This document shows positions 16,490 through 21,961 of a DNA stretch of 64,000 nucleotides, piece by piece. The notes under the pieces are model-generated. The model searched no databases and was not told the DNA's origin. It saw only the letters and a program-made list of their open reading frames with translations. This stretch comes from an uncultured Prevotellaceae bacterium (GTDB lineage Bacteria > Bacteroidota > Bacteroidia > Bacteroidales > Bacteroidaceae), in NCBI GenBank assembly GCA_947168555.1, contig CAMVMJ010000006.1, positions 648 through 64,647 of the forward strand. Reading direction: 5' to 3'. Numbering within the stretch: the stretch's first letter is position 1; each line of letters begins with the position of its first letter. Position numbers and translations under genes: made by a program.

Positions 16490-17404
16490 TCATCTGTCGA
16501 TACGCAACTGGCTCTTTATCAAATGTCCGTCAAGCCTGAGCGTTATGGAAATGCTGTTTGGCTCATCGGCTATACAATCCGAATCATCGAACGTGAGGAT
16601 AAACTCTCCGTCTGCGGACTCGCATTTCAAATCCGATGCACATTCCGACCTGAATTTGGGCTGCGTGGAACATTTTATCTTGGATCCGCCCAAAGTCAGA
16701 CGGCAGAGATATTTGGCACGAGCAAGCTTCTCGGTCTTTATCGCCATCTGACTATAAAGAGCATTATATGCCTCTATCGTTTGCTTTGTCCACGACCTGC
16801 GCCTTCCGTCGATGAAGTAGTTATAAGCCGTAGTAAGCTTATCAACAGTCTCTCCGATGGTTTCTGCATCCGCGATATTATCTTTTGCCGCCTCGGCATC
16901 GGAAACCACTTTCTCCATCCTGCCCTCCAGCTCATCAAACTGTGCCTTTAACTCCTGATAATCAGCATCACTGTAGGGATAAAGCAGACAGAACGCATAC
17001 TGCATCTCTCCGCTTTGCTTGTCTCGCTGCAGTTCCCAATATGAATCCGCGGCACGCGACAGTGTAATGCCCGTCAGGAAGGGCAAGTTTGCCACCCTTG
17101 TGGTGCCCTGCTCCCTAAAGCTGGTGGTCGTCTGCACATCCTGGTTTTGCGTCAGCAGCTCCGTCATCATCTCGTTGGAGTACGTGACATTCTGTGCCAC
17201 AGATTGCAGTATTTGCAGTTTCACTTCGTTCAGCGTTTTCTGCTGGGCCTTCTGAAGGTCGCTGTCAACCCCCGTCACCACAAGAAAACCCTGCCGCGTG
17301 GTGCCATACCACTCAGGACGCTTTTTGGCGCTACGGTCCACAATCTGCTGTGCACCGACCGACACACAGCACATCAGCAACAACACGATACACCAGTTTC
17401 TCAT
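16490..17404 (-). CDS. exported LPP20-like hypothetical protein
   Basis: 304 aa. Signal peptide MRNWCIVLLLMCCVSVGAQ. The segment DSDLQKAQQKTLNEVKLQILQSVAQNV is LPP20-like. The ATG overlaps the upstream stop (ATGA at 17401-17404). Confidence 0.72.
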   Translation of the reverse strand: MRNWCIVLLLMCCVSVGAQQIVDRSAKKRPEWYGTTRQGFLVVTGVDSDLQKAQQKTLNEVKLQILQSVAQNVTYSNEMMTELLTQNQDVQTTTSFREQGTTRVANLPFLTGITLSRAADSYWELQRDKQSGEMQYAFCLLYPYSDADYQELKAQFDELEGRMEKVVSDAEAAKDNIADAETIGETVDKLTTAYNYFIDGRRRSWTKQTIEAYNALYSQMAIKTEKLARAKYLCRLTLGGSKIKCSTQPKFRSECASDLKCESADGEFILTFDDSDCIADEPNSISITLRLDGHLIKSQLRIDR

Positions 17405-17868
17405 TGCACTGCCCTGTTTTGACTGTTATGTATGAATCTCACCAAACGACTGTCTCTCACCTTTATGGCACGGACCAGTTTCATCAGCACATCGGTGTCA
17501 GCGCTTTCGGCAAACGTGCTCTGCAGTTTCAGCGTGACGGAGTTGATGGTTGTGCCGTTCACCTTGTTCTTTGCCAGAAGGCGCAGTTCTCCCTCACATG
17601 TGGTCATCGGCCTGAGTGTTTTCTCTGCCGTACGCGTTTCCGTCATCACAACATCAGCGCTCACCACAAAACCCGAAGTGTCGGCATAAGCATCCGCCCT
17701 CGCCAAAATGGCCTGCACCTTTTCCATCAGTTCCTGCTTGTGGTCCGGGTTCAGCTTCGACTTCGGGGCAATCTCTACGGTAAACCTCACAGCCACAGAG
17801 TCCTGGCCCGTCACTGTTGCGCCGAGCACCACACAAAGCATCATGATGATCAATATCGTTCTCTTCAT
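17401..17868 (-). CDS. exported hypothetical protein
   Basis: 155 aa. Signal peptide MKRTILIIMMLCVVLGATVTGQ. Translationally coupled to the next gene. Confidence 0.7.
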   Translation of the reverse strand: MKRTILIIMMLCVVLGATVTGQDSVAVRFTVEIAPKSKLNPDHKQELMEKVQAILARADAYADTSGFVVSADVVMTETRTAEKTLRPMTTCEGELRLLAKNKVNGTTINSVTLKLQSTFAESADTDVLMKLVRAIKVRDSRLVRFIHNSQNRAVQ

Positions 17869-17891
17869 CCTCTTCTCTCCTCCTTATTATT

Positions 17892-18833
17892 CTACTCCTC
17901 ACTAATGATAATCGCTGCCTGCCCCAAACCCTTTGCCACAACCTTGGAGTTCAGCATACAGGGCTCCTTTCTCAGCTGTTTTGACAAGCGTCGTGCAAAG
18001 GAATAGGCATCCATCGGCATGCCGTTATCGTCTCTCACGGGAATTCTCACGCTCTTGTATTTCAGCATCGTCTCGGTTGAAGCCGCCCTGCTGAAACGGT
18101 GGTTCACGGCCTCCTTGGCTATGAGGGTCGTGATGATTTCCTGCAGGTTTTCATCACCGAACTCGGTGGCGAAGTTTATCTCAGCAGCCTCCGACAGTAG
18201 CACGTCGATCGTCACCTCTCTGCCATGCTCCCTCATGTCCTCGAAATGGCGCATCAACCGGTCGCAGAACACATCCATATGAGCCAATACCGCTTCCTCC
18301 ATGAGCGTTGACAAATCGGCAGAGAACGACGGATTTCCCGTTCCCTCCGCGCCTGCCACCTGTTTGTTGGTGTAAGAATCCAGCGCCTGAAGATTGAACG
18401 TGACAGACTGCTTCGGTCCCACCCTGTTGACTTTCCATGTCAGTTGCAGCACAAGATCGGTGGCAGCCGAATTGTAGATTTCGTCGAGGGCCGACATCTG
18501 TATGCTGTTGCCCTCGGCATCGGTGTAGAGCTTACGTTCGACGTCGTCCGAAGAGAGCGACTTCAGCGCATTCTCCAGGTTCTCCAGCGGAAAACCCCTG
18601 TCGGCCATGATGATATTTATTTTCGATATCATGTTCACGAGGTCCGTGCTGCCGTTCATTGCGGCCTTGTAGTCGGGATACGACGCGCCGCTTGCAGTCT
18701 GCATCATGAAACCGTGCTCCTGACACCATGCATTGCTGGGCACCACCATCACACTGGGTTTCATCATCTGCGCCCTGCACGGCAACAACGCCGCGCAAAA
18801 CATCATGAGCAGTATATGAAATTTATTCTTCAT
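17892..18833 (-). CDS. exported hypothetical protein (resembles the Bacteroidota DUF6175 family; recollection only)
   Basis: 313 aa. Signal peptide MKNKFHILLMMFCAALLPCRAQ, followed by KPSVMVVPSNAWCQEHGFM. Confidence 0.7.
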   Translation of the reverse strand: MKNKFHILLMMFCAALLPCRAQMMKPSVMVVPSNAWCQEHGFMMQTASGASYPDYKAAMNGSTDLVNMISKINIIMADRGFPLENLENALKSLSSDDVERKLYTDAEGNSIQMSALDEIYNSAATDLVLQLTWKVNRVGPKQSVTFNLQALDSYTNKQVAGAEGTGNPSFSADLSTLMEEAVLAHMDVFCDRLMRHFEDMREHGREVTIDVLLSEAAEINFATEFGDENLQEIITTLIAKEAVNHRFSRAASTETMLKYKSVRIPVRDDNGMPMDAYSFARRLSKQLRKEPCMLNSKVVAKGLGQAAIIISEE

Positions 18834-20600: not shown

Positions 20601-21055
20601 TAATAGTCCCACAGTTTATCCGGAATACGGTCGCTCAGACGATAAATCCTCTTGGCCTGCGTGATGATGTATTTGCCCTTCTGATCGACCCAGACAACCC
20701 CCAAAGTCGCAGCGCTGGCATCTGTCAGCTCATGAGCAACCCAACTGATATGCTGCTTCTGTCCCTTGTAGTTGGGCAAAAAAGCCGTCTCGCCAAAGCG
20801 ATTGGGGCAACTGCTGAAGATGTCGCGCACGATAAAGGTGCCAGTCGTGTCTATCAGTCCTACGCCCGTGTCTTTGACAGCACCGGCCACGCCACAGTTG
20901 AATTCCGTAACATACTTGAAGACGGCAGGTATTACCAGGTTTCCAGCCTCATCGGTATAGCCCCACAACTCCCCCACCTGCTTTGGGGTCAAACGCTGCC
21001 CCCAAAGCAAGGCGGGAAGTTGTATAAGCAATAATAAGAAAAGGCTCCTTTTCAT
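20600..21055 (-). CDS. exported WG/KWG-repeat protein
   Basis: 151 aa. Signal peptide MKRSLFLLLLIQLPALLWGQ. The repeats WGYTDEAGNLVIPAVFKYVTEF and VGLIDTTGTFIV fit the WG-containing repeat pattern. Confidence 0.7.
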   Translation of the reverse strand: MKRSLFLLLLIQLPALLWGQRLTPKQVGELWGYTDEAGNLVIPAVFKYVTEFNCGVAGAVKDTGVGLIDTTGTFIVRDIFSSCPNRFGETAFLPNYKGQKQHISWVAHELTDASAATLGVVWVDQKGKYIITQAKRIYRLSDRIPDKLWDY

Positions 21056-21073
21056 ATTACTTTACAGTGTATA

Positions 21074-21961
21074 TTAAGGCCACAGAATCTCGGGCATTTT
21101 GTCGGGAACAGGCATGACTTGCTTGTTCTCCTGAAAGTCCTTTATATACTTCTTATTTATCGCCTTCAAGTCTTTCTCCATTTGATAGTCGTCGGGCACC
21201 TTGAAGTTGGCCTCATTGACGGGACATTCTTCAAACTCCACCAACTCTGCCGTCACGCTTAGAACAGGTGTGTTTTGTTCGCCATCAACATAGACTCCGG
21301 GAAAATACTCTGTATCATTTTTCCTCAGCAGATGACCAGGCATGGGAAATACTTCCATCGTCTTGCCATCAATGACCATGGTGCGCTGAGGTGTCTTGCC
21401 TTCTTCAATCTCAAGATAGACAATATTCTCTATGGCAGGCCATCCGTTCACCTCAGTTAACTCAATACCTTCAGGAATGGTTTTTGTGCCATACAGGGAT
21501 TTGATATCCAATTGGCCTGATTGTTTAATAGCAGCTGATTCAGGATCAAATTTTGTAGTACAAGCAACTTTAAGCTTGGGGAACGCAACAATGGAAAGAC
21601 CGTTTTTCCAGTCTTGTATCACAATGCGGCCCATCTGCGGAACAAATACGATACTGCGATTATTCGTAACATCATAATAACCCATCAACGTCTGTTCTCC
21701 GTCGGTATAGCCCAAAACATAGCGGTTCTCTGCAGCATCCTTAAAAGCACGCTTCACGATTGTTCCGGCCATCTTCTTTGCAATCGAACGCTGGAAGCCT
21801 GAAAGCTTTGTGTTCTTGTCAATATCGGCCTTGACACGTTCTTTTGCAATCTCAATGTCTTCATTGTTTTTGTACATACCCTTTGTGACTGATTTGTAGC
21901 TTTGTGCAACAGCGCCAAAACTCAATACTGCAAAACTAATCACCAAAACTAATTTTTTCAT
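21074..21961 (-). CDS. exported hypothetical protein (first gene of the seven-gene unit)
   Basis: ORF 21074..22054. Start moved to MKKLVLVISFAVLSFGAVAQ (signal peptide). AT-rich. Confidence 0.7.
   Translation of the reverse strand: MKKLVLVISFAVLSFGAVAQSYKSVTKGMYKNNEDIEIAKERVKADIDKNTKLSGFQRSIAKKMAGTIVKRAFKDAAENRYVLGYTDGEQTLMGYYDVTNNRSIVFVPQMGRIVIQDWKNGLSIVAFPKLKVACTTKFDPESAAIKQSGQLDIKSLYGTKTIPEGIELTEVNGWPAIENIVYLEIEEGKTPQRTMVIDGKTMEVFPMPGHLLRKNDTEYFPGVYVDGEQNTPVLSVTAELVEFEECPVNEANFKVPDDYQMEKDLKAINKKYIKDFQENKQVMPVPDKMPEILWP

Follow-up and report, generated by a model that had tools for sequence, protein, structure and literature searches.

The stretch of DNA analysed here (the window) comprises 64,000 nucleotides (nt) of contig CAMVMJ010000006.1 from a rumen Prevotellaceae metagenome-assembled genome, which is 54% complete and practically identical to 'uncultured Prevotellaceae bacterium RUG598'. 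The present study concerns a unit of seven genes on its minus strand, g1 to g7 (21961..16490), which ends shortly upstream of a caspase operon. An earlier note on this DNA had proposed that the two units form one regulon and possibly the structural and enzymatic parts of one envelope machine. The analysis suggests, with a probability of roughly 0.55, that the unit represents a lineage-specific form of a gene cluster marked by the domain DUF6175, and that its genes encode an exported, non-enzymatic scaffold coupled to cysteine proteases in a minority of lineages. The genes of the unit are as follows (aa, amino acids; GC3, GC content at third codon positions).

21074..21961, minus strand: g1, a 295-aa exported protein of a small family, GC3 0.47
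20600..21055, minus strand: g2, a 151-aa WG_beta_rep protein (PF14903)
19353..20600, minus strand: g3, a 415-aa exported protein whose predicted fold is nearest to FlgT
18851..19342, minus strand: g4, a small exported subunit of 163 aa
17892..18833, minus strand: g5, a DUF6175 (PF19672) protein, the hallmark of the cluster
17401..17868, minus strand: g6, 155 aa, only the N-terminal domain of a family usually of about 315 aa
16490..17404, minus strand: g7, 304 aa, with an LPP20/FlgP-like N-domain (about 26-154), a coiled coil and a Cys-rich C-terminal part

The positions of the open reading frames (ORFs) bear out seven co-directional minus-strand genes with spacers of 18, 10, 17 and 23 nt, a 1-nt overlap of g2 and g3 at TAATG (20598-20602), if g3 begins at the ATG at 20600, and a 4-nt overlap of g6 and g7 at ATGA (17401-17404). 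Signal peptides and lipoboxes were assessed by eye and by regular expression. All seven products carry a signal peptide, as had been claimed, with an h-region at every N-terminus; the signal peptide is followed by Gln in six of the seven, which corresponds to the Bacteroidetes 'Q-rule' for signal peptidase I substrates (PMC5837995), and a strict lipobox was absent from all seven N-termini. The statement that no catalytic motif is visible also held, as neither a catalytic family nor an invariant set of catalytic residues was found in the seven proteins, and no invariant residue set suggesting catalysis was detected in the families examined. The WG repeats of g2 and the LPP20-like module of g7 both stand as recognisable pieces, but they are not the only ones, since g5 is a full-length DUF6175 protein that had been missed. 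Searches against Pfam and NCBIfam at permissive E-values returned only noise for g1, g3, g4, g6 and g7. Moreover, comparison of the g2 to g7 families with each other by hhalign detected no mutual relation, on which ground the possibility that g6 and g7 are one split gene was rejected.

The g5 product matches PF19672 over profile positions 1-292 of 293 (E 2.3e-93; 313 bits against a cut-off of 23). This family was present in 32 of 151 Prevotellaceae genomes and in 13 of 201 evenly sampled Bacteroidota genomes, and a motif scan of GTDB species genomes uncovered at least 580 relatives in Bacteroidales, Flavobacteriales, Cytophagales, Chitinophagales and Saprospiraceae, with cultured carriers including Aquimarina mytili KCTC 23302, Flavobacterium rhamnosiphilum LB3P52 and Winogradskyella litorisediminis CCUG 62215. 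One iterated hidden Markov model (HMM) per window protein was run over 105 loci, of which the GTDB loci had been found via a seven-sequence subset of DUF6175, with 80 loci biased to the 'PSDAWC' subfamily. The canonical gene order was [WG-repeat protein of about 580 aa]-g3-g4-g4'-DUF6175-g6 (about 315 aa), with g4 in 96 loci, g6 in 97, g3 in 81, the WG protein in 27 and g7 in 7. A cluster was defined as DUF6175 with same-strand flanks of the g4 and g6 families and usually g3. The window, with g3, g4, g5 and g6 in canonical order, thus carries such a cluster in a version with a single g4 (most clusters have two copies), a g2 shortened to 151 aa, a g6 consisting of the N-terminal domain only, and g1 and g7 as accessory genes. 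The family of g3 numbers over 1,200 proteins, all lacking a Pfam domain, and every member with an inspected context lay within a DUF6175 cluster. No mention of DUF6175 or its cluster was found in the papers searched.

The departures of the window from the canonical form recur elsewhere. The g2 product exceeds the cut-off for PF14903 (E 7.9e-8; 32.7 bits against 25.6) and is a short form of the WG-repeat protein of about 580 aa that heads many clusters. The g1 family always occurred within a g1-g2(short)-g3 trio (L139, L141, L145, L148), and g1 may be a remote relative of a protein of about 290 aa that precedes g3 elsewhere (hhalign probability 51%). Likewise, the short g6 recurs together with g7 (L143, L146) and was kept wherever a transglutaminase-like (TGase-like) gene follows g7. 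Given these recurrences, neither the short g2 nor the short g6 is a decay product. Some Prevotellaceae have g4 and DUF6175 joined in one protein of about 420 aa. Four clusters with this fusion (L046, L047, L050 and L052, from genomes G058, G008, G053 and G105) were found in a different, recurring neighbourhood, flanked by several large proteins starting with an MNCxxCG... or MxFCYNCG... zinc ribbon and by a Sel1-repeat protein.

To the extent that the cluster proteins resemble characterised ones, the resemblance lies in predicted folds. The earlier note had proposed a Foldseek comparison, which was run on g3 and g5 and pointed to a FlgT-like g3 and to a g5 like GNA1162, CsgG, FlgT and PelC. 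The g3 model, built from a 58-sequence alignment, had a mean predicted local distance difference test score (pLDDT) of 82.6, and its sole significant PDB matches were chain 0 of 8z5n (the Vibrio LPHT ring, E 7.5e-8) and 3w1e, FlgT (E 1.9e-7). Both had a probability of 1.0 over about 420 aligned columns, with a global template modelling (TM) score of just 0.22-0.24 and a root-mean-square deviation of 14 A; the predicted domains of g3 thus appear to correspond to those of FlgT, but their mutual arrangement does not. The g5 model (pLDDT 88.4) matched GNA1162 (4hrv, E 1.2e-4), CsgG (4uv2, 5.6e-4) and PelC (5t0z and 5t11, 5e-3 to 1e-2), as well as FlgT and XCC0632, with E-values of 1e-4 to 1e-2, probabilities of 0.96-1.0 and TM scores over the target of 0.35-0.58; FlgO was not among these matches. 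The fold in question is the alpha/beta one known from ring-forming lipoproteins beneath the outer membrane.

Regarding g7, the LPP20-like module claimed for it is borne out as remote homology by profile-profile comparison but not as a match to the Pfam HMM. An 11-sequence g7 alignment compared by hhalign with a profile of 27 Bacteroidota LPP20 domains gave a probability of 91.1% (E 1.1e-6) over 106 columns covering g7 residues 26-154, while g2, g3, g4, g5 and g6 all scored below 5% against the same profile. The LPP20 HMM (PF02169) matched neither g7 nor g4 at E <= 10 and missed g7 when the genome was searched in six frames; nor did it match any of 60 members of the g4 family. A candidate assignment of g4 as LPP20-like was dropped, being undetectable by hhalign, as was HTH_CodY, for which 11 weak matches among the 60 g4 members were taken as noise, no consistent Pfam family emerging. 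Searches of PDB sequences with the single proteins and with g3, g4 and g5 profiles yielded nothing meaningful, the g3 profile retrieving no FlgT chain, and FlgT_N (PF16548) had no match in the genome at E <= 10. The g7 N-terminal stretch ends in ...VSVGAQQ, and a strict lipobox was found in none of seven g7-family members and in 3 of 105 DUF6175 proteins. Apart from the canonical cluster, LPP20 was also found beside partial DUF6175 proteins: in 10 of 10 distant Bacteroidota genomes where PF19672 matched the N-terminal domain only, an LPP20-domain gene adjoins it. The N-terminal DUF6175 portion (about 200 positions) and the adjoining LPP20-domain gene of about 450 aa form a conserved pair distinct from the canonical cluster (G239, G244, G259, G268, G275, G280, G332, G336, G344 and G348).

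These folds recall the Vibrio H-ring, which consists of FlgT, FlgP and FlgO, the latter two anchored by lipidated cysteines (bioRxiv 10.64898/2025.12.02.691832). Structurally, g3 comes closest to the ring protein FlgT with its three domains (3w1e, 8z5n), g7 carries a remote LPP20 (FlgP-family) domain, g5 also matches FlgT, and in both cases several small exported proteins, none of them enzymatic, are encoded together. In contrast to the H-ring, no flagellar P-ring gene accompanies the cluster, FlgI (PF02119) having turned up in 0 of 101 Prevotellaceae genomes although positive controls matched; the cluster proteins lack FlgT_N and LPP20 HMM membership, lipidation and any FlgO match; and the cluster has the additional g4, g6, g1 and WG-repeat components and, in some lineages, protease coupling. 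It is tentatively suggested that the cluster is a flagellum-independent relative of the H-ring in Bacteroidota, which would form a periplasmic ring or disc of FlgT-like, DUF6175, g4, g6 and LPP20-like subunits and dock caspases or LapG-like proteases; the odds are rather against this specific form.

The g5 matches also bring in another possibility, namely that the cluster builds an outer-membrane export device like CsgG or PelC, with a polymer or protein as substrate and the neighbouring proteases processing the cargo. The predicted N-terminal alpha/beta domain of DUF6175 superposes on CsgG, PelC and GNA1162 (DUF799; 4uv2, 5t0z, 5t11, 4hrv), and small beta-barrel outer membrane proteins (OMPs) adjoin the cluster in about 10 loci, one such barrel also lying in the caspase unit of the window. 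These barrels (OMP_b-brl, omp247 family) adjoin caspase-free DUF6175 clusters and are a further thread between the seven-gene unit and the caspase unit. However, unlike CsgG, PelC and GNA1162, DUF6175 has no lipobox and carries an additional C-terminal domain, the matches, with E-values of only 1e-4 to 1e-2, cover the soluble alpha/beta core and not the membrane hairpin, and the neighbourhoods inspected contained no curli or Pel partner genes (CsgE/F/A-like or PelB-like), no polysaccharide synthesis genes and no conserved candidate cargo gene. An export device is therefore considered unlikely.

Turning to the proteases, the genes downstream of g7 in the window are the following.

14889-16235, minus strand: caspase with LRR_5 and Peptidase_C14, low GC3, dyad motifs YAGHG and DACFSG
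14112-14855, minus strand: small OMP beta-barrel (omp247), low GC3
13278-14075, minus strand: BACON-like lipoprotein, low GC3
12434-13270, minus strand: DUF4384-like protein of 278 aa, GC3 matching g2-g7
11237-12421, minus strand: CHASE2 protein, GC3 matching g2-g7
9619-11259, minus strand: TGase-like protein, GC3 matching g2-g7

The 'DUF4384' label of the 278-aa protein was not confirmed, as its homologues match that family sub-threshold only.

Association of caspases with the cluster recurs outside the window. Caspases were found in 4 of the 79 best GTDB loci, against about 0.27 expected from 158 caspase domains in 200 genomes, an approximate density; this is an enrichment of about 15-fold, with a rough Poisson P of about 2e-4 that ignores relatedness, and the four caspase loci come from different families. 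At one locus (L087), g4-g4-g5-g3 continues on the same strand with a gene for a DUF4384-like protein and one for a caspase with WG repeats. At another (L116), a co-directional caspase overlaps the g3 stop codon, and a convergent block consists of a TGase-like gene, CHASE2 and two WG-caspases. At a third (L138), the slot of the second g4 is occupied by a g4-caspase fusion (g4 13-164, caspase 206-430). Two independent assemblies (L139, L148), reached via homologues of g1 and g3, have the order DUF4384-like, caspase-g4 fusion, DUF6175, g1, g2, g3, the fusion comprising a caspase at 28-278 and g4 at 322-450. Because their domain orders are opposite, the g4-caspase and caspase-g4 fusions arose separately.

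The L139 fusion was further searched against 1.84 billion representatives, and the top 150 matches were scanned with the HMMs built here and with Pfam. Among these 150 were two further caspase-g4 clusters (P0131, P0133), a caspase-g4-DUF6175 triple fusion (P0132) and 27 more proteins that are WG-repeat caspases. Also among them, one protein combines DUF6175 with Peptidase_C14 (P0241; Pfam E 3e-102 and 1.3e-20), and another is a partial DUF6175-caspase (P0165). In a further Bacteroidota genome, a 749-aa fusion with Peptidase_C14 at 44-264 followed by LPP20 at 310-392 was identified at L178:574-2820 (G270, contig C1, about 2895160-2897406). The caspase subfamily is hence fused to four cluster-type domains, namely g4, DUF6175, LPP20 and the WG repeat. 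Exported caspase homologues are abundant in bacteria, this subfamily being matched by about 19,000 cluster representatives. The L178 region has two or more additional caspase genes within 16 kb, and a 1020-aa relative of the same caspase subfamily (P0134) has DUF4369, DUF5106 and thioredoxin-like/AhpC-TSA domains ahead of two caspase domains.

In prokaryotic orthocaspases and metacaspases, a p20-type domain with a catalytic His/Cys pair is combined with varying partners (PMC7475262, PMC8283722). The window caspase resembles them in its dyad motifs, whereas here the proteins are exported and the partner domains (g4, DUF6175, LPP20 and the WG repeat) are components of one gene cluster, of which no description was found in the literature searched.

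A second protease association concerns the CHASE2 and TGase-like genes. Among the closest relatives of g7, g3-g4-g5-g6short-g7 is in two loci (L143, L144) followed after 110 nt by CHASE2 and TGase-like genes, and in two others (L146, L147) the order is g4-g5-g6short-g7-TGase-x-x-g3. A TGase-fold periplasmic cysteine protease paired with a membrane sensor, a pair that follows g7 in relatives, is reminiscent of the LapD/LapG switch. In contrast to LapD/LapG, the Transglut_core matches of the TGase-like protein are sub-threshold (E 1e-3 to 1.5e-2), the window CHASE2 protein has no output domain, and neither a LapA-like adhesin nor a LapE pore was identified; gene order is what suggests that the protease/sensor pair may be tied to the scaffold.

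Several observations weigh against a scaffold coupled to proteases. In 20 Prevotellaceae loci fetched regardless of their neighbours, no caspase, CHASE2 or DUF4384-like gene was found within 10 kb, and in the phylum sample none of the 12 genomes with DUF6175 had a caspase near it, any caspase being present in 6 of these 12 genomes against a 40% background. Of the 79 GTDB loci, 75 had no caspase. Among 150 Prevotellaceae genomes, DUF6175 was found in 31, a CHASE2 homologue in 13 and both in 4, against 2.7 expected, and the two were never on one contig, so that no phyletic correlation of the cluster with CHASE2 or caspase was detected. As most clusters have no protease neighbour and no phyletic correlation exists, coupling to proteases cannot be the core function of the cluster. 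Furthermore, the fusion proteins are metagenome gene calls, the global TM scores of the fold matches are modest (0.22-0.28 over the query, and 0.5-0.58 just for small targets), and sequence comparison revealed no relationship with FlgT, CsgG or PelC. Finally, the cluster families are almost never lipoproteins, and the known ring builders FlgP, FlgO, CsgG, PelC and GNA1162 are.

An obligatory link to the caspase operon is thereby refuted, the families being widespread without caspase, CHASE2 or DUF4384 neighbours. Co-occurrence profiling with the caspase operon, as the earlier note had envisaged, gave a divided answer, with no phyletic correlation on the one hand and recurrent adjacency and fusions on the other. 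Similarly, the proposal of structural and enzymatic parts gained independent support from the caspase fusions with g4, DUF6175 and LPP20, from caspases in or directly after clusters and from the order of g7 and CHASE2/TGase, but it fails as a general feature because most clusters are without caspase neighbours. The missing linkage in the 20 Prevotellaceae loci and the 12 phylum-sample genomes, together with the near-chance co-occurrence with CHASE2, would also fit independent neighbours, that is, a cluster with an unrelated envelope role beside which a caspase operon happened to land. At least five kinds of fusion joining caspase and cluster components, the presence of caspases within clusters, or their translational coupling to clusters, in unrelated lineages, the retention of g7 ahead of CHASE2/TGase in the nearest relatives and the caspase enrichment over background all argue against mere neighbourhood, which is regarded as rather improbable.

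Evidence bearing on the same question comes from the DNA upstream of the two units, where the claim that both are preceded by the same GTCTC/GAGAC element was substantiated, with about 155 nt alignable between the copies.

22040..22195, minus strand: element copy B, with the palindrome GTCTCGCGAAATTGCTTGTGAGAC at 22168-22191, GAGAC repeats, an A/T-rich stretch and a TAnnTTTG -7 box at 22054-22061
16300..16462, minus strand: element copy A, with the palindrome at 16435-16458 and a TAnnTTTG box at 16329-16336

The 24-nt palindrome GTCTCGYGAAATTGCTTGTGAGAC has exactly two copies in the 64 kb (22168-22191 and 16435-16458), where none is expected, and in both copies further GAGAC repeats follow at a 9-nt period down to the TAnnTTTG box. 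Between g7 and the caspase gene no intrinsic terminator was found, and an RNA structure in this spacer was rejected (z = 0.09). The spacer itself measures 254 nt and not the 255 nt given before, while the caspase start at 16235 stands. A listed 534-aa ORF (14889-16493, minus strand) reaches through the promoter element to the stop codon of g7, which it overlaps; a caspase start at 16493 was rejected, the open frame merely running through the spacer. Translation most likely begins at the ATG at 16235, with MKYYFNILL... as the signal peptide.

The element was absent from the clusters of relatives in all fetched loci and was present only in the window and the twin genome RUG598. In base composition, g2-g7 (GC3 0.61-0.71) resemble the DUF4384-like, CHASE2 and TGase genes (0.63-0.64), whereas the caspase, OMP and lipoprotein genes (0.36-0.40) form a sharp compositional island of about 3 kb (13278-16235) and g1 stands at 0.47; each of the two low-GC3 segments in the window starts with one copy of the element. 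Its absence from relatives' clusters and its place at the head of these two segments suggest that the element arrived as part of a cassette and is not an ancestral operator common to both units. Had the caspase operon simply landed beside the cluster, the element would be a duplicated or mobile promoter cassette meaningless for the pair, to which both its absence from relatives and its position ahead of apparently acquired genes lend some support. The shared element would let both units answer one regulator in this genome, as the earlier note had proposed, but as a recent local addition. On the simplest reading of the GC3 groups and of the gene order in relatives, g2-g7 and the DUF4384-like, CHASE2 and TGase genes may once have been one operon, into which a cassette of element, caspase, OMP and lipoprotein genes would later have been inserted, a second low-GC3 insertion placing an element copy and g1 at the operon head. 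On this view the coupling of g2-g7 to the DUF4384-like, CHASE2 and TGase genes looks ancestral in this genome.

A third partial GAGAC array (TTGTGAGACGAATGAGACGAAAGAGAC), without the GTCTC half, was observed at L003:1490-1525 (G000, contig C12, about 13737-13772). Its position between convergent genes, with a Sel1-like gene just before it and a terminator-like hairpin alongside, makes a promoter function improbable.

The compositional mosaic, together with the patchy distribution and variable accessories of the cluster, is also what an envelope conflict or defence system might show, with the caspase as effector and the seven proteins as sensors or decoys. The caspase matches the NCBIfam family 'caspase, EACC1-associated type' sub-threshold and the generic caspase model of PADLOC (E 5e-8), and genes for relaxase, NikA and HTH_17 adjoin one relative. 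However, g1-g6 had no PADLOC match, that of g7 was weak DndC noise (E 2.6e-4), all proteins are exported, NTPase or nuclease partners are lacking, and the core operon order is stable across the whole phylum, making a defence system highly improbable.

Taken as a scaffold with facultative protease coupling, the cluster would operate as follows. The products would be Sec-exported, non-lipidated and non-enzymatic and would together form an oligomeric scaffold, located in the periplasm or beneath the outer membrane, with g3 (FlgT-like), g4, g5 (CsgG/PelC/GNA1162-like), g6 and g7 (LPP20/FlgP-like) as its putative parts and g1 and g2 as accessories. This scaffold would be an old Bacteroidota feature with its own function. 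In a minority of lineages, including that of the window, it might serve as a docking platform for, or a substrate of, exported cysteine proteases, either the caspase or the transglutaminase/LapG-like protein with its CHASE2 partner. A periplasmic scaffold that docks exported cysteine proteases, or is cut by them, is thus probable, the assembly, location and docking or cleavage being proposed from fold predictions, fusions and gene order.

If this is true, a protease is plugged into the scaffold as a fused subunit or from an adjacent operon, which would constitute a previously unknown machine for envelope proteolysis, and the window would represent its two-operon form, wired by a shared promoter element. 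To our knowledge, the substrates and cellular setting of exported bacterial caspase homologues are hardly known; the fusions point to the scaffold as a candidate physical partner of these caspases, and to work with them as a candidate purpose of the scaffold. Moreover, the DUF6175 cluster represents a conserved envelope gene set of a major gut, rumen and marine phylum, and the results suggest that a ring toolkit of FlgT-, LPP20- and CsgG-like proteins under the outer membrane serves outside flagella, curli and Pel.

Two minor observations were also made. The relative beside the relaxase, NikA-like and HTH_17 genes (L146:9262-12306) is a cluster with a short g6, g7 and an internal TGase-like gene, and it may be carried on a mobilisable element. 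In the window, a weak LPP20 (PF02169) match below the cut-off (E 0.002) was detected at 1931-2152 on the minus strand within a 624-aa open frame; this is apparently an N-terminal module common to three Sel1/PEGA paralogues.

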